Positions 1,081 through 62,130 of a stretch of DNA of 64,000 bases are shown one piece after another. Location: the NCBI RefSeq assembly GCF_006345805.1, contig NC_043010.1, positions 2,914,001 through 2,978,000 on the forward strand, given 5' to 3'. This stretch comes from Octopus sinensis (Eukaryota). Positions within the stretch are counted from its first letter, which is position 1. Every line of letters begins with the position of its first letter. The translations under genes were made by a program, and so were the position numbers. The notes beneath the pieces were generated by a model. The model was given only the letters and a program-made list of their open reading frames with translations. It was not told the origin of the DNA and did no database searches.

Positions 1081-1338
1081 TGCAAATTTAAAAGTGATGA
1101 TGGGTGTTAATAGTGAGGATAGTAGTGTAGGTTATTGCTGAAGATTAACCCAAGTCATCCTAGAGTTGTGATCAAAAACATTCCAACAGTAAATATCAAA
1201 CCAGTTTTTGTTCAGCTTGCTTTGAAGCTATTCAATTTTGAGTTTAGTCCCATTGCATGGTGCTTTGGGCAAGTCTCTTATACTTTGGTACATATACATA
1301 TATATACTATTTACCTAAGCTGTAAAAAGTCTTCATAA

Positions 1339-1378
1339 ACTGTTACTCAGATTTTCACATGACTATTCTTCAGACAGT
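1339..1378 (-). ncRNA. Degenerate type I hammerhead ribozyme motif
   Basis: Minus strand ACTGT-CTGAAGA-atagtcatgt-GAAA-atctga-GTA-ACAGT: 5-bp stem I and both core boxes present, but GAAAA instead of GAAAC; resembles the 10007-10044 motif. Confidence 0.55.
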
Positions 1379-1380
1379 TG

Positions 1381-7045: not shown

Positions 7046-8009
7046 GTATGTATGTATATATGTATATATGTATGTAAGTATGTAAGTATGTATGTATGTA
7101 TGTATGTGTGTATGTATGTAGGTATGTATGTATGTGTATATATATATCTATGTGTGTGAGCATGCGTGTGTATCTGTGTGTGTATCATGCATACATACAT
7201 GTGTTATATATATATGTATGTACCTGTGTGTGCAGGTATAGATATAGCTTTACATTGAAATGTTTATCATATATATATATATGCATGTGTATGTTTATAT
7301 ATATGTATGTATGTGTATGTTTATATATATATATGTGTGCGTGTATGTGTATTATATATCTATATATCCACATATATGTATACCTGTAGCTGATTGATAG
7401 ACAACTAGGTAGACAAGCAAATAGATAGATATATATTCATATACATGAAGGTGTAATACATTTTTACACCCCTTACACACATGCACAGACACTCTCACAT
7501 ACATTCTTGCATACAGACACACAAATATGTGTGCATGCAAGAATATGAATGTGTGTATGTTTGTGTATATTTTTGTATGTGTAATTATAAAAAGCCCTTA
7601 CTTAAAAAGATAAGTGTATTTCTGTATTTTGTTTCTTGGTTTAGTAGATATGTGTGCTTGTATGTGTGTGTGCATTTGTATGTTTACGTATACAAGTCAA
7701 TAATTTTGGTTTTATAAATCTGTTTCCCAATATCTGTCTTATTTATTGTCCTTTTTTTGTTGAGCTATCAACAAATACACAAACACAAATATATGGACCT
7801 CTATATGTATTAACAGATAACGTATTTTTGCTATTTTTGTTGTGTATATACATACATATATATATATATATATATGTTTGTGGTGTGTGTAGTATGTGTT
7901 TGTATGTATTTAAATATTTAAGAAAAATGTTTTGATACACTCACAATATTTGAAAAAGAGTTTTTAAATTAAAAATTTGTTAATTATATAAAACATTCTT
8001 TATGAATGG

Positions 8010-9235
8010 TGCTAGGAAACAACTAGTTCTTTGATAATCAGTATTACATTATCACATATCAGGGATGGGTAAGGGTGCAACAGTTGCACTCTCTTTTGGA
8101 ACACTAGTGGCAGGATTCTTATAAAAATAAAAATGTATGTCCTATCAGGGATTATTTCTGATTTGCATTTCCAACCCCATTTAATTCGAGATCCTTGGAT
8201 GACTGCTTCATATTTTTGAATGGAAATAAGGAAGATCTCACAGGATTCCATGGATTAATCAATAACTTTCTTGAATCGATCCAATTAAGAATGAAAATGA
8301 ATGAAAGGAACTTCCATTTCCAAACATTTTGGTAATTAATTAAAGAGTAGCTGTTATTACTCATTTCTACTGCAAAGACATGGCCACAGACTAATACTTA
8401 GTTTCCAGATCTTGCTATCTTTCCCAAACTAAAACTAAAGAATTCCATTTAATGTAACAAGACAAGTATGTACAACAGTTACTGACTTAACTAGAGAAGA
8501 GAACAAACTGGAAGATCTAAAAATATTATCCAAAGTCAAAGGCATGTTAAAAAATTATGATAATACCAAGCTAAGTCAAAGCAAATTTCAGTCCCTGTTT
8601 TACTGAAAAGTTCTCCTATTGAAGAGGAAGGCAGACACAAGTGGAAAGATTCCATTTGTAGTAATTTGCAATTCGAGAAACAACTTCTGACATTCAGTCA
8701 AACAATACCTGATTCTACACCAATTTTCGAATCTCATGAAAACCATCAAAGAATTTCAAATTATTAACAATCAAAGACTCCCAACAGATTTTCAGAGACT
8801 CTTGGCAAAGTTGAAATGCACATCATAAGAAGTAATACAGGTAATAAAATGTGAAGACTTTTGTTGCAGGATGCGGGATTAGATTGAACAGTGTAAAGTC
8901 AAGGTCAAGATTGGGAAAGAATTTAACATTTCTGCAAATATGAATAACAAAACAAAAAAATTCTCTTTTACAGCATTATATGACTACAATGCAATGAGAA
9001 CTATATTAACAAAATTTATCAACTGAATCAGAGTACATAAACAGCAAATCAAAGCTCCACCTGTCAGAACTAATATATTGTGAACATTGAAACAACTGTG
9101 TAAATAGGAAATTCAGAACATTGCTTTCCTTCAAAAAACTGAAAACAGTAATTACTAAATAGATAACAAAATTGAAAACTTTGCCGTAGATCACGTGTGT
9201 TTGAAGAAGAATAGCAAAGAAACTTCCTTCTAACA
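8010..9235 (+). mobile_element. Decayed Penelope-like element (RT + GIY-YIG endonuclease remnant)
   Basis: Across frameshifts: FDNQYY.., RSLDDCFIFLNGNKEDLTGFHGLINNFLESIQ (RT catalytic DD motif), IPFNVTRQVCTTV..KLEDLK (thumb), VIKCEDFCC, LQCNENYI and IRVHKQQIK (GIY-YIG region). Confidence 0.75.
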
Positions 9236-9909
9236 TGTCTGTGTTAATCTGCTTTTACTAAGTAATTTTTTCATAATTTTAATTAAAACAAATCTTTTTG
9301 CAAATACATGTAAGTGCACACTTCCATCTACTTCCTGCCACACATATATATATTATATATATATATATATGTTATGCTAACAGAATATATATCAAAGTTT
9401 TAAGTCTACATTCCATGTAATGACAGATTTGAACACCTTGTCTGCAAATGAGTTCTCATAACAGAAGGAAAAAAAAAAATTCACCAGGAATTAGTTTCAT
9501 TAGTGACTAAGTAACGGATGCAAGCCCCCGTTTCCGTTACCTTTGGTTCACTCAAGCCTGTTAAATGAATTTGGGTAGACAAAAACTGTGCAAAAATCTG
9601 TTGAGTGAACAGTAGCAGTGATTTAAGTGAACTTTCAGAATTCTGTGTAAAGTATGTGTGTCCATGGAATACACAGCCATTTCACATGCTAAGTCAATAG
9701 GTAGGTCATTTGCTTGATCAAACAGCTAGATATTCATGCATTAGAATCTTTTACTTATTGTTTTTTTACACCTCTACGTCATTTCCTCTCCACTGTCATA
9801 TGCTTTACTTCCATATATGGATGTGCAGACTCCATCACTCCTTTTACTTGTAACTCACCTGCAAACCCAAATAAAAACAATCAATCTCTACTATATATAT
9901 ATATATATA

Positions 9910-10150
9910 TATACTTTATTTTAAGCAGCAGAAAATCAACAAAATCTGTTACTCTGAGTTTCTCGTTGCCGTTCATCAGACAGTTTTTGCTAGATTCTAG
10001 CAAAAACTGTCTGATGAACGGCAACGAGAAACTCAGAGTAACAGATTTTGTTGAATTTTCTGCTGCTTAAAATAAAGCATATTACTCTACCACTGGTATT
10101 TGAGTACTCTTTTTTCCACCTTGTTTCACATTTATGTGTTTACTCCGGTA
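9910..10150. mobile_element. Fold-back element 1 (~85-bp arms, centre 9995) plus unpaired 3' tail, flanked by (TA)n; probable Penelope-derived inverted pLTR
   Basis: 9910-9994 is a near-perfect reverse complement of 9996-10082. Confidence 0.85.
10007..10044 (+). ncRNA. Minimal type I hammerhead ribozyme (mirror copy 9946-9983 on minus strand)
   Basis: CTGT-CTGATGA-a-CG(GCAA)CG-a-GAAAC-tcaga-GTA-ACAG; stem I CTGT/ACAG, near-palindromic stem III ACTCAGAGT, predicted cleavage after 10040. Confidence 0.8.
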
Positions 10151-10165
10151 TATATATATATTATA

Positions 10166-10570
10166 TATAAAATATTATTCGAGACAAAACACTATTTTGC
10201 AAAACAAACAAGGAAGACTTAATCAATACATAAAATTTTAATAAATAGTCCAAAAAACCGCCACTACAATCGTTTCTTGTCTTGATCGACAATCTTCAGG
10301 TGGACTTCCAATAATTCAGTGTCAAATTTGACACTGAATTATTGGAAGTCCACCTGAGATTGTCGATCAAGACAAGAACGATTGTAGTGGCGGTTTTTTG
10401 GACTATTTATTAAAATTTTATGTATTGATTAAGTCTTTCCTTGTTTGTTTTGCAAAATAGTGGTTTTGTCTCGAATAATATTTTATAATATTTTACTATA
10501 AAATCGATTTAATCCTAAATCTGATTTTTTCCCTGTAAATTTGGATTTATTCCCTAATATTTATTATTAT
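10166..10570. mobile_element. Fold-back element 2 (~160-bp arms, centre 10326/10327) plus unpaired 3' tail, flanked by (TA)n
   Basis: 10166-10326 is the reverse complement of 10327-10487 apart from a few 1-nt indels. Confidence 0.85.
10261..10303 (-). ncRNA. Type I hammerhead ribozyme (mirror copy 10350-10390 has two 1-nt core deletions)
   Basis: Minus strand CCAC-CTGAAGA-TTGTC(gatcaa)GACAA-GAAAC-gatt-GTA-GTGG: all core nucleotides, 4-bp stem I, 5-bp stem II. Confidence 0.88.
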
Positions 10571-10733
10571 ATATATATATACATACATGTGTGTGTTTAG
10601 TGTTGACTATCAAGAAAAAGAGTACTTGATACCATAGTAGAGATTGATATATATATATATGTATATCTATATGTGTGTGTGTGTGTATGTGTGTGTATGT
10701 AAATATAATATGTGACAATTATTCAGTAGCCAT

Positions 10734-10794
10734 GATAAAACTCCACGTTTTGGATGTCGGGGCGGAACCACACGCCGCCATCTCTTCAGTTATC
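10734..10794 (-). ncRNA. Degenerate hammerhead motif with GC-rich extended stem II
   Basis: Minus strand GATAA-CTGAAGA-gatg.gcgg..ccgc..catc-cAAAAC-gtgga-GTT-TTATC; the G of GAAA is replaced by A at a putative CpG. Confidence 0.55.
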
Positions 10795-11271
10795 CGGCCA
10801 TCGAAAAAATGCTATGAAAATGACCATTAAACAAAGGGAAATTACTGTATGATTGACCGTTATTAAGACAAAAGAGCTATCAGAATGACCGCTAAGTGGG
10901 GGGAGGGAGTGAAAATGGTCATAGTATTCGCATAAGCACGCATGTCCATACATACACATACGTGCCCGTGCACCCACATACGTGCACCTATAAGTGTATA
11001 CTCATCCACTGTGTTTTACTCTTATTGCATATTTTTTAATACATATTTTGCCTCTAGCCCTGTTTTTTCTTGTGCATGTGTGTATATAGACGTGTGTATG
11101 AACCATTTTTGTGCGCGCATGTGTGTGTGTGTGTGTGAGCATGTATGTAAGTATGTATATATTTTTTGGCGAATGTGTGGGTGAGCATGTGTGTATTTCA
11201 AGTGAGGGTGGATGACTATGCACTTATATATATATATATGTGTGTGTGTATATATGTATGTATATATAATG

Positions 11272-11307
<36 letters not shown>

Positions 11308-11788
11308 TATACATATATACACACATATATATATATATACACACACATATTCATATATATATATATATATATGCATATTTATACAAAGTTGAACAGTACA
11401 CTCAGATCCCATTATTGACCAGTCTCTTTTTATGCTTCTCTTCCTTGTCTTCTATCATCTCTGCAGCACAAGAGTTCTAGAGATCTCCTCCCTATGTTGT
11501 CATCAAAGACATTTCTTCTTAATATACATAACTAACTGGGTGAAATATATGTTCAAATTTGTGCAGTTTTCTGTGTCATTGCTTCTATAAATGATATGCA
11601 TTGAATGGAGAGGAATGAGATATGCATGTTGGATTGGATGGACAAAGAATACATACCAGAAAGGTCATACATATATGTGTCGAGCTAAAGGTGAAAGCAT
11701 TGCCCAATTTAAGTAGAAACTGAAGAGCTAATTATTTTGGCATATGGAATATCTATATCTATATCTATCATTCTCTCATTCTCTGTCA

Positions 11789-11828
<40 letters not shown>

Positions 11829-11953
11829 GATATATATATTATATTATATATATATTATTCACATATAAATACATACATACAGATTTAACATAAATTTAAA
11901 AATACAACTTACATTCATATATGCATACATATGTATATATGTATATATGTATA

Positions 11954-12013
<60 letters not shown>

Positions 12014-12659: not shown

Positions 12660-13255
12660 AGATGTGGGGTTAGAAGTTTGCTTCACAAACACATGGCTCT
12701 GGGTTCAGTTCACAGCATAGAATCTCAGGCAATTTGTCTTCTACTATATCCTTGTGCCACCCAAATACCTGTGAGTGGATTTGATGGATGGAAACCAAAA
12801 GAAGTCCATTATATATATATTCTTTTATTCTGTTTTTGTTTTACTTGTTTCAGTCATTTGAATGCAGCCATCCTGGAGCACTGCCTTTAGTCTATACATA
12901 TATAGTATATACATATGTATGTATGTATGTATGCATGTATGTATGCATACATGCATGTATGTATGTATGTATGTATGTATGTATGTATGAATGTGTGTAT
13001 GTATGTATGAATGTATGTATGTATGTATGCATGTGTCTTTGCGTTTGTGCTGTGTTTGTCCTTTACCAACACCTGGCAACCAGTGTTGGTTTGTTTATAT
13101 CCCCTTAACTTAGTGGTTCAACAAAAGAGACCACTAGAATAGGTGCCAGTTTCTAAAACTAAAAATAAGTACTGGGGAAAATCTGTTCAACAGAACGCTT
13201 CAAGGTGGTGCTCCTGCATGACCATAGTCCAATCACAAAAATAAATAAAAGGTAA
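12660..13255. mobile_element. Cluster of SINE family A pieces in both orientations around (TATG)n
   Basis: Head at 12660-12805(+), tail at 12835-12890(-), tail at 13050-13250(+). Confidence 0.7.
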
Positions 13256-13728
13256 ACAACAAAAGATATGTGCATGCATTCACTCACTCTCTTTCTCTCT
13301 CTCACATGCACATATGCACACACACAAACACACACACACACACACATGCTATACTATAACACATATATATTTAGATTCTGAGTCAAGACGTCATATGAAG
13401 ACAGAGGTAAATATCTTCTCTGTATATGTGATATCATAGTATTTGTTTATTGACCACAGTTCAGATCACGAGACCAGTCATGGTTCTTGGCCAGCTGCTC
13501 CGTATACTCATGCATTAAAGATGACACAGTCAAATGCAGTCTTATGCAGAGTGCAGAGTTTGCCTGCAGCTTACCAAAGAAAGGATACAAGTGAACCAGT
13601 GATTGGTCCACTCCAAACTTATGACTGATGACACCAATCTTTACAAAATGTGATACAAAATTTAGAAACAATATAGAAAATACTATATATATATATATAT
13701 CTATTATAGATATATAATATATAATATA

Positions 13729-13841
<113 letters not shown>

Positions 13842-14644
13842 CATATATATATATTTGTATATATATATATATATGTTCTAATTCTTAAGGTGCTTCTCCA
13901 GATATAGCCAACATTAATTTGAGGTTGAAGAAGAGCAGAGCAAGAAGAATATACATCAGCTTGTGTATATATGTATAAAGATATGATTTTGTGTTTCTAT
14001 GCATGTGTATATATGTGTGTGTGTGTGAGAAAGAGAGAGAGAGAGAGACAGAGAGAGAGAGAGAGCAAGATGATGTGTAATAGCTTAATCCTATTATGTG
14101 TATATATAAATATTTGCATCACTTTGTTGTGTATGAGTATGTGTAAGCGTGTATGAGTGTGTATTTGTGTGTGTAAACATGTAATGCATTTATATATACT
14201 TGTATGTATGCATGTACGTATTTATATATATATTGTGTGTGTATATATGTACATCTTTTATTTGCTTCAGTCATTGAACTGTGGCCATGCTGGGGCATGC
14301 CTTGAAGGGTTTAGTTGAACAAATTGACCCCAGTACTTAGTTTTTAAGCTTGGTATTTATTCTATTGGTCTCTTATGCTGATCAATATATCCATCTATCT
14401 ATTTCTTTTAGTTCATCTCCCGCTTCTTTCTCACTCATATTTATAAATATATAGATAATTTATATATTCATTGTGTGTGTGTATATATAAGTTATAAATA
14501 TGTATTAATTTATTTGTAAATGTATATATATATATATATATAGATATATATTATATTTATATTTATATAAAATACATATATATATATATACATGTGCATG
14601 TGTGTGTATGTATGTATTATATATATATACATATATATATATGT

Positions 14645-14678
<34 letters not shown>

Positions 14679-14992
14679 ATATATTCATTCGCCTGTGCAC
14701 ACATGCAATAGCACTAACCTCTCTACAGAGGAATCTATCCATCATTTAGAATTTATTACAACAGAAATCCATTCCATATGTAAGTGTGTGTGTGTGTAAA
14801 ACGAATCCATAATAATGTAGAAGTTCTCAAGTCTTAAAGCATAACTCAAGTAGTTGCCACTGGGGAATCATTTATTTGAACTTGGAACCGATTGCTTGGC
14901 AACCATCAAGTTAAGACAAATAAACTATGTGCTGTGTATCTGTAACTGTGAAAAAAAAAAAAAAATATAGATGAATCATTGTCATAATTTGG

Positions 14993-15345
14993 TGCAGGCA
15001 TGGCATGGCTGTGTGGTTAAGGAGCTGTTTTTTGAAACCATGAGGTCTTGGTCTCAGTCGTATTCTGTGGCATCTTGGGCAACTGTCTCAAGGTTGACCA
15101 ATGCCTTGTGAATGAAACTGTGTGGAACCTGTTATATACACACACGTATATATATATGTGTGTGTGTTTGTGTTTGTCCCCCACTATGCTTGACAACCAG
15201 TGTTCATGACAGAGCAGTTCAGCAAAAGTGACCACTAGAATAAGCACTACCTTTAAAAAATAAGTACTGGAGTCAATTTTTTTGACTAAAACCTTCAAAA
15301 TGGTGCCCCAGCATGGCCACAGTCAAACGACTGCAACAAGTAAAA
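14993..15345 (+). mobile_element. SINE family A (tRNA-derived), internally deleted
   Basis: ggctgtgtggttaagg..tgtttgtccccc..gcatggccacagtc..aacaagtaaaaga. Confidence 0.8.
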
Positions 15346-15489
15346 GACAGGAGAAATGGAGAGAAGAGTAATCATCGTTTTGGGATTAAGCTTTTGTTTG
15401 AGAGATAGAACTTTTTTTACATTTGGCCAAAGACACCAGATTTCTCCTCTTTGTACAACATATATAAACATATAAGTGCAGGCGCAGCT

Positions 15490-24234: not shown

Positions 24235-24450
24235 GCCTTTCTACTGCAGGTACTGGATTTGAGATTTCTGGTGAGGTGATCTTTATGATTACATTGACCT
24301 CAGTATGTAACTGATACTTATTTCAATTGACCCAAAGAACATGAAAGGCAAAGTCAACCTTGAGAGAATTCGAACTCAGGATGTCAAGACAGACGAAAAG
24401 CTGCTACACATTTTGTCTGGCATCCTGACTATTCTGTCAGCTTGCTTCCT
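24235..24450 (-). mobile_element. SINE family B
   Basis: atgaaaggcaaagtcaacct..gaattcgaactcag; contributes the false N-terminus of ORF 24341. Confidence 0.8.
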
Positions 24451-24553
24451 TAATAATAATAATAATAATGATGATGGTAATAATAATAATAATAATAATA
24501 ATGCTGATAGTAATAATAATACTACTAATAATAACAATAACAATAACAATAAT

Positions 24554-26319
24554 ACGCTCTCTCCACTCCTTTTCTGCTTGGCACTGTCACCTCTATCTGA
24601 TATGCTAAACAGAACTGGACGCGGATATAAATGTTACGGCAAAACGATCAGCCACCTTTTATATATGGATGACCTAAAACTATACGCTGCAAATGACAAA
24701 CAGCTGGAAACACTATTAAAGACAGTTCATGGATTTACCAAAGAAATAGATATGAAATTTGGATTAGAAAAATGCGCCAAAGTAACCATGAAAAGAGGAA
24801 AACTAGTTAAGAGTAACAACATCACACTAGATAAAACCAATGAAATAAAAGAATTAGACCAAAGCCAAACTTACAAATACTTAGGAATCCATGAACTAGA
24901 TAAGACACAACTCACACAAATGAAAGAGAAAATAAAAAAAGAATATTATAGACGAGTTAGATCAATACTAAAAACAGAGCTCAATGCTAAAAACAAGATA
25001 ATAGGTATCAACACTTTAGCTGTCCCAGTTATAAGTTACAGCTACAATATCCTTAACTGGACACGAAATGAACTGTCCAAAATAGATAGGAAAACAAGAA
25101 AAATACTGACAGGATCTAGGATGCATCACCCAAAATCTGACATAGAAAGACTATATATACAACGTATAGAAGGTGGTAGAGGCCTTATACAGCTGGAAAA
25201 CTACTATAAAATAACCACCATAGGACTGCAAAAATACCTACTTCAGAAGGAAGGAAAACTGATCCAGATAGCAGCAAAACACGAGCAAAACAAAAAACTG
25301 TTCTCAGTATTTAAGGAAGCCGACAAATACAAACAAGAAATCATACCACCTAATAAACACAAAGAAGAAGAAGAAGATGATGAAGAAACAACAAAAGCTA
25401 TAAAACAAATGAAATCCAAACTAAAAAAGAACAGCAACGAGCCATGATAAAACGATGGCAAGAAAAGCCCCTTCATGGTAAATACTGCACTAAACTAAAC
25501 GCAAAAGAAATAGACAAAGAAAAATCCCAGCAATGGTTGAGAAGCTCAGGACTCAAAGCAGAAACAGAGGGATTTTTAATTGCAGCACAAGACCAAAGCC
25601 TCCCACCAGAAATTACCAAAAACATGTAATGAAAAGAAATATTACAAGTAACTGCAGAATATGTGGAGATGGACAAGTAACAATAAATCATATTATCTCT
25701 AGCTGCCCAGTCCTGGCTAAGAAGGAATATATTCACAGACATGACAGAGTTGGAACCTACATACATTGGAAGCTATGCCAACATTATGGAATAACAACAG
25801 AAAAAAGATGTTATAGGCACACACCAGAAAAGGTCACAGAAAACGAGAAAGCAGCCATACTCTGGGATATGCCGATACACACAGATAGAGAAATTAAGGC
25901 CAACAGACCAGATATAGTTGTCAGAGATCATGAAGAAAAAAAATGCTTTCTAATTGATGTATCAATACCGGCAGATGACAACATGTCTCTAAAAGAAATG
26001 GAGAAACTCTCAAAATACAAAGACCCGGAAATAGAGGTAACTAGAATGTGGAACCTGAAAACAGAAACAATTCCTATCATAGTAGGTGCATTAGGCATGA
26101 TAAAAAAATATTCAGACAAATACATAACAAAAACACCAGGACTTACAAACACATATAACATACAGAAAATTGCACTACTAGGCACTGCATACATCCTACG
26201 CAGAACACTTTCCATACAATAACCATCAGAGCATCACAACAAATCACAGCACATACCCAAGGCACACAGAGCTGCGCTTGGTAGTGAAGTGAAAGCATGC
26301 TATAAAAATAAAACTACTG
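24554..26319 (+). mobile_element. 5'-truncated R4/Dong-clade non-LTR retrotransposon (RT C-half, CCHC knuckle, restriction-like endonuclease, ~97-nt 3' UTR)
   Basis: LSPLLFCLAL, HLLYMDDLKLY, FGLEKC, YKYLG, GGRGL; CRICGDGQVTINHIISSC; RHDRV; NRPDIVV..IDVSIP..EKLSKY; stop at 26222; (AAT)n on both sides; two 1-nt frameshifts (~25425, ~25603). Confidence 0.93.
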
Positions 26320-35400: not shown

Positions 35401-37117
35401 GACTGTCAATCCTACAAAAACCCGAAAATTAAAGGGAAAATATATGAAAACCATATTTGACATTGATACCACAATAGAATCCATCAAGCAAAAGGTATAT
35501 GCTAAAGCTTCCTGCATAGTAAGGTATGAAAAGCGCTTTAGATTCTTCAAGGACAACAACATGTTAAAAAATAACCCCCAAAATTCTTACAGGAAGACAG
35601 GGAAAATACCAGTTACAGTAAAGTCTGCCCCATCAAAAGAAGAAGAACAGGAATTTTGGAATAAAAGTTGGGCAGAAGAAAAAACTCACAATGAAAAGGC
35701 CCCTTGGATTGATAGAATAACTACAGACTTAGACACCTAAGAAGAGCAAAAGTGGGAGGGTGTCAAGGTAGAAGATGTAAGAGCTGCTCTCAGGAAGTCA
35801 AACAAATGGAAGTCCCCAGGAAAGGGTAAAATTCCTAACTTCTGGTTGAATGCCTTCCCAGAGAGCCATGAACTGCTAACAAAACTTTACAACAATGTTT
35901 TGTAACAACCTAGTATGATTCCCTCTTGGCTAGTTAATGGTGTAACATTCCTACTTTCAAAAACTGAAGAAACAAATGAACCAAAAATTATAGACCCATA
36001 ACCTGCTTGACATCAATGTATAAAATGCTAATGTCTGTCTTGACTGCATATAGCTATAGTTTTTAAATAGAAAGTGGCATATTCCATAATGAGCAAAAAG
36101 GATGTAAACGTGGGTCAGATGGTTGTAAAGATCAGTTACTCATCAATAAGATGATCTTGGGAGGTGGTCACAAACGGCACAAAAACTTGTCGATAGGCTG
36201 GATAGACAATAAAAAAGCTTTTGATAGCCTACCACATAGCTGGATTAAGAAATGTCTGGAAATGTATAAAATAGCACCTACACTGCGAAACTTTTTGTCT
36301 TTAAATATGAGATCATGGAGAACCACACTGACTTTGGACAGTTACAATGAATCTCTTAATGATGAAGATGTAAGAATTTCATGTGGCATTTTCCAGGGTG
36401 ACTCTCTATCACCATTCCTCTTTTGTCTAGCCTTAATACCTCTCTCGAAATTGCTCAATGATGTACAGTATGGTTATAAAATGTTTGATAAAAATATAAA
36501 TCATCTCATTTACGCAGGTGATTTAAAGCTCTTTGCAAAAAATGACCAGCAACTACAGGGCTTACTAGCGATTGTTAAACAATTCAGTGATGACATCAGG
36601 ATGCAATTTGGCCTCGATAAATGTGCAAAAGCTACCTTTATCAAATGGAAAATGACAGAAACATCTAACGTTAATCTTGACCAGCAGAATGTCATAAAAG
36701 AGTTAGAACCAGCGAAGAGCTACAAATACCTAACGGTATTTGAAGGGGATGGAATCAAACATTCAATGATGAGGGAAAGGATCAGAAGAGAATGTTATCG
36801 CAAGGTAAGAGCAATACTCAAACAGAGCTGAATGCAAGAAACAGGATCAAAGCTATCAATATTATAGCCATACCAGTCATGACTTACAGTTTCAATATCA
36901 TTAACTGGTCAATTACTGAAATATGTAATCTTGACAGAAAAATAAGAAAATTGTTGACAATGCATAGAATACACCATCCTAAGGCAAATATGGAATGACT
37001 TTATCTGCCAAGAAAAGAGGGAGGGCGTAGACTTTTACAACTGGAATTAACAATGAAGATTGCCACAATTGGCCTAGACACCTATCTGAAAAACTTTGAA
37101 GACTGGATGTTAAAACA
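35401..37117 (+). mobile_element. Second R4/Dong-type LINE family, decayed RT fragment
   Basis: WKSPG..KIPNFWL, YRPITCL, EQKGC, WIDNKKAFDSLPHSW, GIFQGDSLSP, IYAGDLKL (YMDD mutated), FGLDKC; several stops and frameshifts; 3' part cut off at a SINE. Confidence 0.9.
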
Positions 37118-40260: not shown

Positions 40261-40527
40261 AAAAAGAAGAGAAACATAAAAGTATACAGATATTTTCTCT
40301 CTCTCTTTCTCCCTGTGTATATTCTTTTACTTGTTTCAGTCATTTGACTGTTGCCATGCTGAAGCACCACCTTTAGTCGAACAAATTGACCTCAGGACTT
40401 ATTTTTTGGAACCTTAGTACTTATTCTATCGGTCTCTTTTGCCAAACTGCTAAGTTACGGGGACATAAACACTCCAACTCTTGTTGTCAAGTGGTGGTGG
40501 GAGACAAGCAAAGACACACAGACATAT

Positions 40528-40757
40528 ATTTCTTTATTGCCCACAAGGGGCTAAACATAGAGGGTACAAACAAGGACAGACAAAGGGATTAAGTCGATTA
40601 CATTGACCCCAGTGCAAAACTAGTACTATATTTATCGACCCCGAAAGGATGAAAGGCAAAGTTGACCTCGGCGGAATTTGAACTCAGAATGTAACGGCAG
40701 ATGAAATACCGATAAGCAGTTCACCTGACGTGCTAACGTTTCTTCCAGCTCACCGCC
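40528..40757 (-). mobile_element. SINE family B, full length
   Basis: Reverse complement of the copy at 40961-41189. Confidence 0.88.
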
Positions 40758-40960
40758 CTATACATTATACATATATTTATATATGTATGATGGACTCTGC
40801 CATTGAAGATGACATATGAGTGTTCAGTTTTTGCTGAACAAGCTACACAAATGATTTGCTTATAGTGATCAAATGTTTGTGTTGCACCTTAGCTTGCTCC
40901 CTCCATCAAAGCAACGTTGTCTGAACAGGTGCACGGTGCATCATGCATCAGGTGTTGAAG

Positions 40961-41189
40961 GCGGTGAGCTGGCAGAAATGTTAGCACACTGGGCGAAATG
41001 CTTAGCAGTATTTCGTCTGCCGCTACGTTCTGAGTTCAAATTCCGCCGAGGTCGACTTTGCCTTTCATCCTTTCGGGGTTGACAACTTAAGTACCAGTTA
41101 TGCACTGGGGTCGATATAATTGACTTAATCCGTTTGTCTGTCCTTGTTTGTCCTCTCTGTGTTTAGCCCCTTGTGGGTAGTAAAGAAAT
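40961..41189 (+). mobile_element. SINE family B, full length, with 11-bp TSD
   Basis: tRNA-like head with B-box gagttcaaattcc; gcctttcatcctttcgggg Meta-like domain; TSD aggtgttgaag at 40950-40960 and 41190-41200. Confidence 0.92.
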
Positions 41190-42349
41190 AGGTGTTGAAG
41201 TGGTCGTAGAGCAGTGTGAGATGAAGGGTTATGCTCAAGAACAACTATGCACCACCCAGTCTAGCAATTGAAATCACAATCACTAGAATGTGATTGCAAC
41301 ACTCTGACCACTGTGTGTGTGTTTGTGTTTGTCCCCCCCCACCACTTGACAACCAGTGCTGGTATGTTTACATCCCTGTAACATAGCAGTTCAGTAAAAA
41401 AGACTGATAGAATAAAATGCCAGGTTTTAAAAAATCAAGTACTGGGGTCGATTCATTCAACTAAAATTTTTTCAAGGCAGTGCAGTGCCCCAGCATGACC
41501 ACAATCTAATGACTGGAACACGTAAGAGATAAAACGATAATACAAATACAGAAACTAAATGCAATAGAAAGAAAGTGGAACCTCTAAAAAGTTTATCCAT
41601 CTAACTTTAATAAGAATAACATACAAACTTATAAAAAAAAAAATGACATTATACTCTTATAAAAGAGCTGAAAGACAGATTCCGCAACTGAACTGCTCAC
41701 TTCTCCCTCAATGGCAAAGCAACAAAAATAAGAATTTTCCACAGAAAATTGTAAAATAAATCCTGTTAATAATGACACGTACCAAAGCAATTCACATTGA
41801 TTTGTTTTTGTTCCAGGTTCAGCCAGAGGTGAGATGAAATTATCGACTGGTTGTGACTGTTACATCAGTAAAAGCTACTCCATTGATGAAAAGGTTGCTG
41901 TTTATTATTTCCAATAACCCCAGCGACTAACCAATCTCTCGAAATAGCATCTGTTTGACTCATCATTGCATGCTTTGTAATACTATATCTTCAAACATGA
42001 AAGCTGTCATTGCATAACCATTCTAGTCTGATTAGGAAAAAATAAAAAGGATAAGAAAAAGCTAAAGGAATAATATTTTTAGACATTTTGCTTGAAATAA
42101 TGTCATGTGAGGTCCACAGAATGGTTGGAAGTAATCTTCTGGTGAGCAGAGTCTGTAACATGTGTTCACTTTTAGGTGGAAGCATTTTACCCCATAAACT
42201 TCGTGTGTTCTTGCTGTTTTCTACTGTATTGAAGAGTCCAGAGAAAGACAAGTTCTGCCAAGTTAACCTGCTTTTTTTATGTTCCATAAAAGAGAAAACA
42301 CCGTTTTTGTAGGTAACAAAAAAAAGTAAACAAAAATAAAGCAACAAAA

Positions 42350-42496
42350 ACATGTGATTTAGAAGCTCACTTTGCAACCACATGGTTCTAGGTTCAGTCC
42401 CACTGTGCAGCACTGTGGGCAAGTGTCATCTGCTATAGCCATGGACCAACCAATCTTTGTGAGTGGATTTGGTAGATGGAGCTGTGTGGAAGCTGG

Positions 42497-42528
<32 letters not shown>

Positions 42529-42755
42529 ATGTTTATCTTTGTGTTTGTTCCTCCCTGCTCCACTTGAAATCCAGTATTGGTTTGTTTATGTCCTATAACT
42601 TAGTGGTTCAGTGTCAAAAAAAAAAGCCCAATAGAATAAGTACCAGACTTTAAAAAACAAACAAACATAAGTGCTAGGGTCAATTTGTTTGAGTAAACTC
42701 TTTAAGGTAGTGCCCCAGTATGGCCGCAGTCAAAAGCCTGAAACAAGTAAAAACA
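42350..42755 (+). mobile_element. SINE family A
   Basis: caaccacatggttctaggttcagtcccactg..cctgaaacaagtaaaa. Confidence 0.82.
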
Positions 42756-43713
42756 AACAAACATATGAATAAATAAATAAATATTTAAAGCTTTAAAGGT
42801 TTACAGAATTGCAGCTCAGCAGACTACCAAATGATGTTTCAAGAATTTGTACCCAGGTGCAGTTCTTTGATGTGCTTATTGAGAAGACATTTAACTCTTC
42901 GTACTTTAGTGCAACATACACCATACTGAATGAAATAAGCACCATGTGTGATAATGGTCACTACTGTAAGCAGCTGGAACAGTATGAAATTGATGAATGT
43001 TTCATTAACTTGTGGTAATTAGATCAAACTCCCAAGAGGTTTGAACTAGATCCTTTTTAGACATGGGCAGGGGGACACCCGGTGATTGTTCACAGCCTGG
43101 TAATGTGTTTACACTCATAGAGTCTAAAAGGAGAATTTCTGCTCCCAAGACCAATTGTGAAACAATGTGTCTCTCAAAGTCCAAATGTACACAAACATGT
43201 TAAATATCACTGTACACAGTTATATTTCATTCAACATTGTTTAGTGTGTCTTTAATTAACAGAATAATTTAGATGCTGTTAAGGACAGATTATTACTTCA
43301 AATAAATTGTCAATATCTCAGGTATTTACCTGAGATATTGACAATCTTTCTTTCCTTCTTTCATCAATTTATATCAGATACAGTGACAGATATGTGACAT
43401 ATCCTGTTAATTAGAAGATTACAGGTATGTGGCATCCTTCGATCATTATGTCTTTAAAAATCAATTAATACTTGGTGTTGCTGCTCCTCACAAGAATACA
43501 ATATCCATTAGAATTTTACGCTTTCATTTACCTAGCACTTGATTAATCAGTAAGCAAAACAAGCGCATGCTTTGGGCATAGAAATGGTAAATGGTTTAAT
43601 GTATGCAAAAAATCATTTTAAACTTGTTAAAATCATAATTGAAATTGTTTATATGATTTTTTTTTTTTAAACGGAAAATTTGACAAGTCAGTCAGTCACC
43701 AGCTGACACTCAC

Positions 43714-55539: not shown

Positions 55540-57009
55540 ATATATATATGTGTGTGTGTGTATGTGTGTGTTTGTGTGTGTGTGTATGTATGTGTTTGTG
55601 TGTCTGTGTTTGTCCCCCACCATTGCTTGACAATTGATGTTTGCGTGTTTACATTCCCGTAACTTAGCAGTTTGGCAAAAGAGACAGATGGAAGAAGTAC
55701 TAGGCTTACAAAGAATAAGTCCTTGGGTCAATTTGTTCAACTAAAGGTGGTGCTCCAACATGACCATTGTCAAATGACTGAAACAAGTAAAAGAATTAAA
55801 AAAATATATATATATATAGTATGTAATGGTATGTACTCTAGTACTTTTGTATACTGTATATATTCATATTTCAAATCTTGATCAACATCATCACCATTTA
55901 ATGTCTGTTTTCTATGCTGGCATGGGTTAGATAGTTTGACAGAAGCTGGGGAGTTAGAGGACTGCACTAAGTGTCAACATCTGCCTAACTTAAATACATC
56001 ACTTCTTTAACTAAGTTTCATCTTACCTTTCCAGCCATATCCAATGGCTCAATGCATTTCATTATTTTTTTTATATATTAGGAACTGAATTAAAAAACTT
56101 CCTATATGTCATGAAAGGAATGTAGTGCCCAAGGCCTTTTACAAGGTCTCTGAGCCTGATAAGAAGGGGAGCATAATGTGTCCCTTAACTGGGAATCTGG
56201 CTTGAATACTTGCAACAAAAGAAACCCCACTAAAGGCACCCAAGATACAAGATGTCAGTTATAAACTGAAGTGAGTTAAGTCTACCTCTCAATTAACCAT
56301 AGTAGGATTTGAACTCACAATGCAAACTGTCAGAATAAATACAGCAAGGTATCCAATCAGATGTTCTCACAGTTCCACCAATGCACCCTGCTTGATTGGT
56401 ACTTCTATTTTTAATCAACCCTGAAAAGATGAAACCACCACAAGGTTCAGTCTTTGTTGCGATGTGATAGTTATGTTCCTCACTGACCCCACCCCATACC
56501 AGATAGATTAAAGGATAGAGACCAGGTTAATATAGGCCACCTCTTCCAGAGATAAAAATGAGTTTGCTATAGCTAACACTCCTGCCAAGAAAAGAGCCAA
56601 GTTACAGAAGCAGGATAAAGATTAAAGCTCCTTCCTGAATTGTATAGACTCATAGAGCAGGTTCTTTTGATTTTCTGGTGTATATACTCTCTGCTGGACA
56701 GAACACCAACCAGTCATAAGTATATCGATTTTTACTGACTGAGTGGACCTGAGAAACATGAAACAAAGTGCTTTGTTCAAAAATACAACCCATTGCCAGG
56801 TCCAAGCATTGAAACCACAATCTTACAATCATGAGTCCGACATCTTGATCACCAACACACATAAAGTTAGAGGAGTGTCAACGATAATTCAGAACCAACA
56901 AGACCTGGGAGAGAAAAAGGAAGCCCAGGGTCAAGAACAGTGGAGAAGGGAAAAGTTTTCAATGGCTTATGCTTCATAGGAAGTGAAGGGCTTAAGAAAG
57001 AAAGAAGGA

Positions 57010-57044
<35 letters not shown>

Positions 57045-57579
57045 GCAAAATTGATTTTGGCTGGATTTGAACTCAGAGCTCAGAGTGTCTGGCATTTTTT
57101 CCAATGTTCTAATAACAAATAAATAAATACATAAATAAATAAGAAAAAGCAACATAATTAAATACTTTATATTAATTTTAATGTCAAAACCATTATTTTC
57201 TGTAGCTTTGAAAGTTTTTTTTCTAAAGCCAGTCTGCCCAAGCAGTGGCATCAACTGAAGATTAACATGGAAGGTGAATGCATGGCTGAAGAATTCCTTT
57301 CAGTCGAAGCAGTGAACTTACCAAATTTTGCTTTTGTTTTTGTTTTCTTCGTGTGTTACCTTAGAGTCATTTGTCATTTTTTTCTACTTTCTATGGAATA
57401 TTTTAAAGTAATTTCCATTAACTTTCAGCTAATCAGACACTGAACAGAAAGGGGATTGCTGTCATAACATTTATGACATTTACGTGTGTGTGTCTGTGTG
57501 TGTGTGTGGGTGGTGGGTAGGGGTGGGTGGGGGTGTTTGTGTGTGTGTGTGTGTGTGTGTGTGAGAGATATCATCGGTT

Positions 57580-57990
57580 TTTTTACTTGTATTAGTCATT
57601 GGACTGTGGCCATGCTGAAGCACCACCTTGAAGGGTTGAGTTGAACAAATTGCCTCCAGTACCATTTCCTCTATAATCTGTTACCCATTTTATTGGACAC
57701 TTTTGCTGAACTGCTAAGTTGTGGGGGTTGTAAACAAATTAACTCTTGTTGATAAGTGGTGGGAAAGACAAACACAAAGACACATACATGAACATACTCA
57801 CGCACACACACACACACACACACACACCACACACACATATGAAAGGCACAGTTTCTGTCTACAAAATTCACTCATAAAACTGGGATATAGTAGTAGATGG
57901 TAATCTAAAGTGCCATGCTGTGGGACTGAATCCAAAACCATGTGTGGATGCAAAGTGAGATTTGTAACCACACAACCCTGCCTGCACCTA
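57580..57990 (-). mobile_element. SINE family A, decayed
   Basis: Tail gtggccatgctgaagcaccacc; head gtgggactgaatcc..accacacaaccctgcctgcacc. Confidence 0.75.
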
Positions 57991-61383: not shown

Positions 61384-61840
61384 TTTTTTTTCCTTCTTTC
61401 TTCAAATTTTCTTCCGTTTCTCGCCGAGTGTTTTCCGTACACCTAGGGCAGAGAAGTTCATTGTATGCATTCCCAGATTACACACACAAATTCACAGGTA
61501 AAATATGTATTTAACAAATTAATAAATAAATAAATTCATGAATGGAAGTTGTTTTCACAGCGATAATGCTCTTCTCAGTACATGAGCCGTTCAGGGATGG
61601 TAAGCCTGGTATCATTTTCAAATAGGTTTCAGTACCTTTTTTCATCATTCCTAGAGCTCCTACAATCACTGGTACTGTAGACGCCTTGAGATACCACATT
61701 TTTTCAATTTCTATTAGCAAGTCTTTATATTTACTGATCTTGTCAAATTCTTTCGCCGCTATATTGTGATCGCAAGGAATACTCATGTCAATTGATAAAC
61801 ACATCTTTTTTGTCTGATCTTTTATAATAATATGCGGTTT
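61384..61840 (-). mobile_element. Third R4/Dong-type LINE family, extreme 3' fragment (RLE C-terminus + 3' UTR)
   Basis: KPHIIIKDQTKKMCLSIDMSIP..DKISKYKDLLIEIEKMW..PVIVGALG; (ATT)n on both sides. Confidence 0.88.
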
Positions 61841-61859
61841 ATTATTATTATTATTATTA

Positions 61860-61935
<76 letters not shown>

Positions 61936-61973
61936 GATTATTATTATTATTTATTATTATTATTATTATTATG

Positions 61974-62038
<65 letters not shown>

Positions 62039-62039
62039 G

Positions 62040-62130
<91 letters not shown>
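61841..62130. repeat. ~290 bp (ATT)n microsatellite
   Basis: Directly visible. Confidence 0.97.

Follow-up and report, generated by a model that had tools for sequence, protein, structure and literature searches.

Hammerhead ribozymes of Penelope-like elements (PLEs) are characterized by a small palindromic helix III and form opposite-strand pairs 100-700 bp apart; they show no activity as monomers and low activity as dimers (PMC4209133). PLE inserts typically combine an inverted, 5'-truncated copy with a tail at one end and a bias towards microsatellites (Craig et al. 2021, PMC8557442), and palindromic head-to-head PLE junctions have been interpreted as the result of self-priming (Arkhipova et al. 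2013, PMC3846280). Biochemical work has shown that a PLE nicks AT-rich DNA on both strands, with two start sites that define the tail; the hammerhead of the element is assisted by protein, and hammerhead mutants leave insertion in vitro unaffected (Frangieh et al. 2024, PMC11167929). PLE stumps that bear hammerheads and have inverted arms have already been described. Among natural hammerheads in general, a stem II of 2 bp is common and U.U at positions 10.1-11.1 occurs (Perreault et al. 2011, PMC3088659; axolotl HHR_Amex2, PMC7229834), and U4C is a natural variant with lowered activity in vitro (PMC3088659).

Here, we describe a pair of mirrored hammerhead motifs in a 64-kb window, that is, the whole stretch of DNA that was analyzed. 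With good confidence, we interpret positions 9913-10148 as two copies of the end of one high-copy repeat, both 5'-truncated and inserted head to head in (TA)n, which likely represent a Penelope-like stump and carry hammerhead motifs that are predicted to fold only as dimers and are likely silent at this site.

Results

Two mirrored hammerhead motifs

Element A contains two identical type I hammerhead motifs located head to head on opposite strands (plus strand, 10011-10040; minus strand, 9979-9950). The features of the locus are the following.

9893-9912, no strand: (TA)n tract in the left flank, the likely insertion target (sequence)
9914-9994, minus strand: left arm of A, 5'-truncated, without tail, reading outward (matches the right arm)
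9946-9983, minus strand: mirror copy of hammerhead A, with C3 at 9979 and A17 at 9950, identical across the ribozyme to the plus-strand copy
9990-10000, no strand: head-to-head junction, centre at 9995, 16 bases upstream of C3
9996-10077, plus strand: right arm of A (inverted-repeat alignment)
10000-10051, plus strand: hammerhead A, type I, in which stem I consists of 4 bp, A.A and 6 bp
10007-10010, plus strand: 5' strand of stem I, CTGT (read from sequence)
10011-10017, plus strand: core box CTGATGA (read from sequence)
10018-10027, plus strand: stem II, A-CG-GCAA-CG-A, 2 bp with a GCAA loop
10028-10032, plus strand: core box GAAAC, of which 10028-10031 is the core part
10031-10039, plus strand: stem III, ACTCAGAGT, near-palindromic
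10040, plus strand: cleavage nucleotide A17, with the predicted cut 3' of 10040
10041-10044, plus strand: 3' strand of stem I, ACAG
10078-10148, plus strand: tail of A, 71 bases, on the right arm only, followed by (TA)n (alignment)

An earlier note on this DNA had reported identical mirror copies that keep CUGAUGA, GAAAC and GUA, which we confirmed on both strands, along with a stem II of CG-GCAA-CG closed by an A-A mismatch, which is indeed present at 10018-10027. Stem III, which had been described as near self-complementary, is so at 8 of its 9 positions, and this fits the palindromic type found in PLEs (15.2-16.2 plus loop 3). Beyond the A.A mismatch of stem I (10006/10045), 6 further pairs are formed. 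The core is complete in both arms (C3-A9, G12-A15.1, U16.1 and H17), and A10.1·A11.1 is unpaired where the type I fold calls for a paired 10.1-11.1 in stem II. The description of the motif as intact accordingly holds for the core letters but not for 10.1-11.1, nor for the family at large, in which U4C accounts for 16-66% of the depth. The range 9946-10044 given in the earlier note takes in only the centre of the insertion, which extends over approximately 9913-10148.

A type I descriptor detected 3 sites in the 64-kb window, namely, both arms of A and a site at 10299-10265 of the minus strand, compared to a chance expectation of 0.1 site per window (40 simulations of the window under an order-3 Markov model gave 4 sites). 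Rfam gave no match in the window at the gathering score and, at E<=10 within 9800-10700, 59 matches, 0 of them to hammerhead families; the matches, including rliI, which scored above the gathering score in E-value mode, were rejected as hairpin look-alikes of the long inverted repeat. A relaxed core search of the window yielded no U4C or U3-A8 copy; the same search overlooked the hammerhead of the neighbouring element B, and so is incomplete.

Element A resembles the metazoan PLE hammerheads (Cervera and de la Pena 2014, PMC4209133) in its type I topology, its CUGANGA/GAAA/NUH core and its palindromic stem III, as well as in the predicted use of dimers, the dispersed, high-copy, truncated motifs and the opposite-strand pairs. 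The difference lies in stem II: it consists of 2 bp in A, as opposed to 7-8 bp reported for Schistosoma motifs and 4 or more in the motifs compared from figure S3 of the same paper. Furthermore, the consensus given there, in which an extra base after A9 is followed by G10.1-C11.1, does not match A, although two rows of figure S3 likewise have no extra base after A9. The stem III word of A has 0 matches in the searched part of the supplement of that paper. For the natural hammerheads with a weak stem II, the only mismatch at 10.1-11.1 described in the passages compared is U.U, whereas family A has A.A or A.G. A literature search, with most subscription papers and Repbase outside its reach, found no paper on family A.

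A second hammerhead palindrome

About 100 bases from the hammerhead pair lies a second palindrome, element B, with a sequence unrelated to that of A (10172-10487, with the tail to 10556).

10172-10326, minus strand: left arm of B, another high-copy family, without tail (alignment, depth)
10261-10303, minus strand: hammerhead B, complete core, with C3 at 10299, A17 at 10265, a 5-bp stem II and CCAC/GTGG as stem I
10327-10487, plus strand: right arm of B (alignment)
10354-10386, plus strand: hammerhead of the right arm of B, with one A missing in each core box
10488-10556, plus strand: tail of B, 69 bases, on one arm only (alignment; family depth over 10514-10552)

Hammerhead B has its own self-complementary stem III and its own stem I, and the centre of B is a perfect palindrome. 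The 4 differences between its arms are all 1-base changes in single-letter runs, and the 1-base losses in the plus arm are possibly sequencing errors. Contigs of family B end at 10487 in (TA)n (36 and 19 contigs), and no variant reaches 3% of the family depth across the hammerhead (10261-10303). Hammerhead B is both better formed than that of A and the more promising one for an assay; the earlier note named neither this palindrome (10172-10556) nor the likely Penelope context.

Insertion anatomy and the mirror centre

Insertion A occupies approximately 9913-10148. Its arms (9914-9994 versus 9996-10077) agree at 81 of the 82 columns, the sole difference being a 1-base indel outside the ribozyme. 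(TA)n borders A, B and a solo relative of A on both sides, which fits the AT-rich or microsatellite target of EN+ PLEs; owing to these flanks, no target-site duplication is readable at A. The EN+ PLE insertions described previously (PMC3846280, PMC8557442, PMC11167929) share with A the inverted, 5'-truncated copy, the palindromic junction, the tail at one end and the AT-rich or microsatellite target. In contrast to them, A retains no ORF and both of its copies end 16 bases upstream of the core, the tails of A and B (71 and 69 bases) exceed the 30-40 bases published for PLE tails, and at the A/B locus two families lie side by side.

The solo relative is the following feature.

1316-1379, minus strand: older solo relative of A, with a decayed hammerhead between (TA)n tracts (74% over 65 columns, E 2.4e-5)

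It starts about 8-10 bases upstream of the core, and its hammerhead (1340-1377) has a paired A10.1-U11.1 and another letter at the unpaired centre of stem III. Apart from this relative, a stretch at 10598-10648 (minus strand) weakly resembles the tail of A (local score of 40, compared to 37 for the highest-scoring of 2000 shuffles), and 9880-9894 (plus strand) is a 15-base exact inverted copy of the start of that stretch. Together, the two frame the A and B cluster and are perhaps the remains of an older third insertion whose (TA)n received A and B.

To survey the family, 4 of 22 sequencing runs were used, from 3 organisms and 3 studies. Run X20, which may consist of RNA, has no coverage of the unique flank and thus speaks neither for nor against expression. 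Contigs of run X1 cross the centre of A, and one of these (record 2) covers 9948-10026 gap-free, with 5 differing letters and a depth of 77. The inner breakpoints vary between contigs: among 15 of 89 joints listed, 5 are in A and 10 in B. One recurrent centre of A is 7 bases shorter and forms a perfect palindrome on CTAG (8, 7 and 7 contigs in the three large runs), and another is 1 base longer and lies on AT (3, 1, 1 and 1 contigs in the four runs); one centre recurs at about 70 times the flank depth. In 3 of the 4 runs, loose ends before 9994 consist of unmirrored upstream sequence. At the other end, contigs of family A often terminate near 10082 in (TA)n (79, 40, 33 and 3 contigs in the four runs), and the depth of the family remains high over the tail (10085-10123). 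Some of the low-depth joints could be library fold-back chimeras, as may arise in a very high-copy repeat.

The less common family letter at 10045 and at 10069 is present in both arms of A, and the letter at 10251/10400 is shared by both arms of B and found in about 0-5% of the family depth. Taken together, the arms of A and B show 0 substitutions among 233 aligned pairs, for which the rule of three gives an upper bound of about 1.3%; each of the 5 differences present is a 1-base change in a single-letter run. We infer that the arms of each pair derive from one template, via fold-back at insertion or later conversion. Because arms made from one template are identical from the beginning and can be homogenized subsequently, their identity provides no date for the insertion and does not establish the young age that the earlier note took near-identical arms to suggest.

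Such symmetry could also be produced by a fold-back artefact of assembly or library preparation acting on a single hammerhead copy, and two near-perfect palindromes side by side, without a single substitution, together with the family-rare allele shared by the B arms and the fact that no contig in the 4 runs bridges the whole locus, are what this explanation would lead one to expect. Nevertheless, we consider it very unlikely. Contigs from an independent run cross the centre of A, as described above; in three runs, which come from two studies, 4-10% of the local depth belongs to the CTAG centre; the arm ends differ, one with a tail and the other without; and inverted motif pairs among metagenome relatives of A (L007 and L008/L009, see below) have non-identical arms (84-94%).

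The variability of the centre bears on yet another explanation, under which a palindromic MITE-like unit is mobilized as DNA and carries the hammerhead along as a passenger. The 82-bp, near-perfect inverted arms would suit such a unit, and the centre at about 70 times the flank depth could represent amplification of a ready-made palindrome. However, the copies do not behave as a fixed unit, given the variable centres, the unequal ends created by the tail, the 3'-biased depth and the unmirrored copies, so that this explanation appears extremely improbable.

Abundance and variation of the families

Family A comprises roughly 10^4 related copies, with 24,689, 6,083, 5,698 and 568 related contigs in the four runs. 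In run X5, where the unique flank has a depth of 49.1, the summed depth amounts to about 38,000x over 10046-10084 and about 13,000x at 10027 for family A and to about 28,000x the unique flank over 10436-10474 for family B, these ratios giving an order of magnitude rather than a copy number. Along the arm of A, the depth climbs from 5' to 3' (0.22M, 1.0M and 2.9M in run X1), as expected from 5' truncation.

Variants were tallied site by site at >=3% of the pooled depth, with only those contigs counted that were >=80% alike, which favours the reference letter. On this basis, U4 is replaced by C in 66, 34, 16 and 26% of the pooled depth in the four runs, N7 of hammerhead A differs in 8-18% of the depth, at position 11.1 (10027) A accounts for 42-76%, G for 15-41% and T for 6-18%, and the mismatch position of stem I reads G in 49-63%. 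No variant at >=3% was found at C3, G5, A6, G8, A9, G12-A15.1, stem III or A17. Across copies, the core is therefore not fully conserved, in that it varies at U4 and N7 but not at these core positions. Moreover, the ribozyme contains 4 variable sites in about 48 bases compared to 5 in the following 60 bases and, given these similar counts inside and beyond it, shows no sign of extra constraint. RNA editing was ruled out as an explanation for the A>G rows, which are also present in DNA-type runs, and CpG decay is an unlikely source of the T/C split at U4, given that no matching G5A row reaches 3%.

Predicted folds

In the folding model, the monomer of hammerhead A misfolds (hammerhead fold, -4.9 kcal/mol; misfold, -9.6 kcal/mol), with a probability of 0.0 for stem III, 0.43-1.0 for the pairs of stem I and 0.8 for the inner 2 bp of stem II. 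For two sense copies, the predicted minimum-energy fold is a double hammerhead (-21.4 versus 2 x -9.6 kcal/mol); the stem III homoduplex is modelled at -7.4 kcal/mol. The double hammerhead is also the preferred model for two copies of 9996-10082 (-34.4 versus -32.2) and for two copies of the core of hammerhead B (-23.4 versus -15.8). Although these predictions agree with the earlier suggestion that the ribozyme works as a dimer, the margin of energy for the dimer of A is small, the predicted probability of an inter-copy helix III in a direct tandem of 9996-10082 is only about 0.14, and, when the tail is included, two copies of A are predicted to pair via the tail instead.

The two motifs at the locus, which the earlier note had treated as a pair, are a different matter. 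Read-through RNA of the locus is predicted to form one long hairpin, with C3 bound to the mirror arm (P 0.99997). Because the arms of A are on opposite strands and such RNA would pair arm with arm, the two motifs are not each other's working partner and are, judging from the model, likely silent at 9913-10148. The same prediction weighs against a host-used ribozyme pair that cuts the transcripts of both strands. The complete core letters on both arms would be in keeping with such a use; conversely, both motifs are buried in the modelled read-through RNA, and the locus is one of very many dispersed copies that partake in the variation of the family, which renders host use next to negligible in probability.

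Relatives and the probable Penelope link

To search metagenomes, we specified stems I and III in the pattern and allowed stem II to vary freely. The A-type stem I/III motif (38-40 bases) was found in 11 metagenome loci with 7 distinct spacers. Among these spacers, 5 of 7 make 3-4 inner pairs in stem II, and 10.1-11.1 is G-C, G.U or U.U. Covariation in stem II, assessed over 10 distinct rows, did not exceed that of shuffles, of which 62 of 500 reached the paired share and 114 of 500 the score. Searches of viral and prokaryote collections with exact longer patterns gave 0 matches each.

In one locus, L001, an ORF ends about 105 bases upstream of the motif. The Atlas clusters closest to this ORF are GIY-YIG proteins of eukaryotes (0.97); no Pfam family was assigned to it, and a PDB sequence search gave no significant match. 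The ORF may resemble the Neptune clade. Two further records, L008 and L009, represent one locus in two samples and contain the last codons of an L001-type ORF upstream of a second, inverted copy of the motif, such that a truncated inverted copy lies head to head and the motif is downstream of the ORF end. Altogether, the end of an endonuclease-like gene precedes the motif in 3 of the 11 metagenome loci (L001, L008 and L009), all from other organisms; in the remaining 8, the scan showed no endonuclease motif.

Additional features of the L008/L009 locus were noted. The second motif copy of L008 (929-973) carries C and A at positions 4 and 5, respectively, as would fit U4C followed by CpG decay. 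Two further inverted repeats (414-588 and 1512-1734 in L008, the same in L009) adjoin the hammerhead pair, one of them with 87-base arms 1 base apart, so that palindromes are clustered as they are in the window.

There is no PLE ORF at the locus or elsewhere in the window, and tblastn of the L001 frame against the window gave no match at E<=1. The reverse transcriptase fragments at 24311-26222 and 36067-36831 were rejected as the partner of A, being 14-26 kb distant and without a match to the L001 frame. Thus, filing A as a PLE, which we consider likely, draws on the insertion anatomy and on relatives in other organisms, with which A shares the 38-40-base motif, rather than on a linked ORF; A likely behaves as the hammerhead-bearing end of an endonuclease-type PLE.

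The lack of an ORF at the locus, combined with the very high copy number of a short unit, raises the question of whether family A could be a non-autonomous, retrozyme- or SINE-like parasite that uses PLE enzymes, as opposed to the terminal repeat of a coding PLE. Like A, the non-LTR retrozymes of animals (PMC7229834; bioRxiv 10.64898/2026.07.22.740005) are non-coding, have type I hammerheads, which in some species depend on dimers, and are tied to PLEs, and it has been proposed that they derive from PLE terminal repeats (bioRxiv 10.64898/2026.07.22.740005). However, retrozymes consist of head-to-tail tandem units, each with a hammerhead (bioRxiv 10.64898/2026.07.22.740005), whereas A is an inverted pair, and no direct repeat of the arm was found within 8000-12000 or elsewhere in the window, except for the decayed solo copy at 1316-1379. 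A parasite of this kind appears unlikely to us, and the mechanism of insertion would be unchanged from that of a PLE stump.

Other features of the window

The window, which reads as non-coding animal DNA, has a high AT content, abundant TA and TG microsatellites and decayed reverse transcriptase frames. Two broken frames on the plus strand, at 24311-26222 and 36067-36831, match Pfam RVT_1 (E 1e-10 and 8e-17, respectively), and 61511-62074 (minus strand) resembles the end of the first of these. Dispersed repeats of 130-270 bases, mutually inverted and 69-87% alike, occur at 40323-42752, 55542-57840 and 13118-15347 and give the impression of being SINE-like. In addition, 43306-43345 is a near-perfect 40-base palindrome (95%).

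Discussion

What was observed for element A is its anatomy, together with a high copy number, mirror centres that vary and a tail on one side; the mechanism of insertion is what we infer from these observations. Under the Penelope-like stump model, the GIY-YIG endonuclease of the element would nick AT-rich DNA, and reverse transcription would begin at either end of the tail and halt shortly past the hammerhead. The inverted arm would be made anew from the same template in the course of insertion, either through fold-back or because cDNA ends anneal at short self-complementary words (CTAG, AT). Any activity of the ribozyme would be weak and would take place in the tandem transcript of the source element, where two sense copies could pair via stem III.

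Given the 2-bp stem II, the unpaired 10.1-11.1 and the common U4C, efficient cleavage is probably not needed for the spread of family A. A stronger version of this proposition, which we put forward only tentatively and regard as possible but doubtful, is that a PLE-type family among the most amplified in this animal group has spread with a hammerhead crippled by a stem II of 2 bp, a purine-purine mismatch at 10.1-11.1 and, in a large subfamily, U4C.

As a single locus, A matters little; its value lies in the access that it gives to two high-copy families. What role the hammerhead plays in PLEs is unsettled (PMC8557442, PMC11167929), and a family at about 10^4 copies that has a weakened stem II and a U4C branch would allow a direct comparison of ribozyme quality with amplification. 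Should a hammerhead with A10.1.A11.1 and a 2-bp stem II cut as a dimer, the known tolerance of the fold would be slightly widened. If a crippled hammerhead has indeed accompanied the spread of the family, its mirrored stumps, which number in the thousands and have centres recurring on self-complementary words, would constitute a natural data set with which to address two questions: whether cleavage by the ribozyme matters for the spread of PLEs, and whether one and the same molecule serves as the template for the head-to-head arm at insertion.
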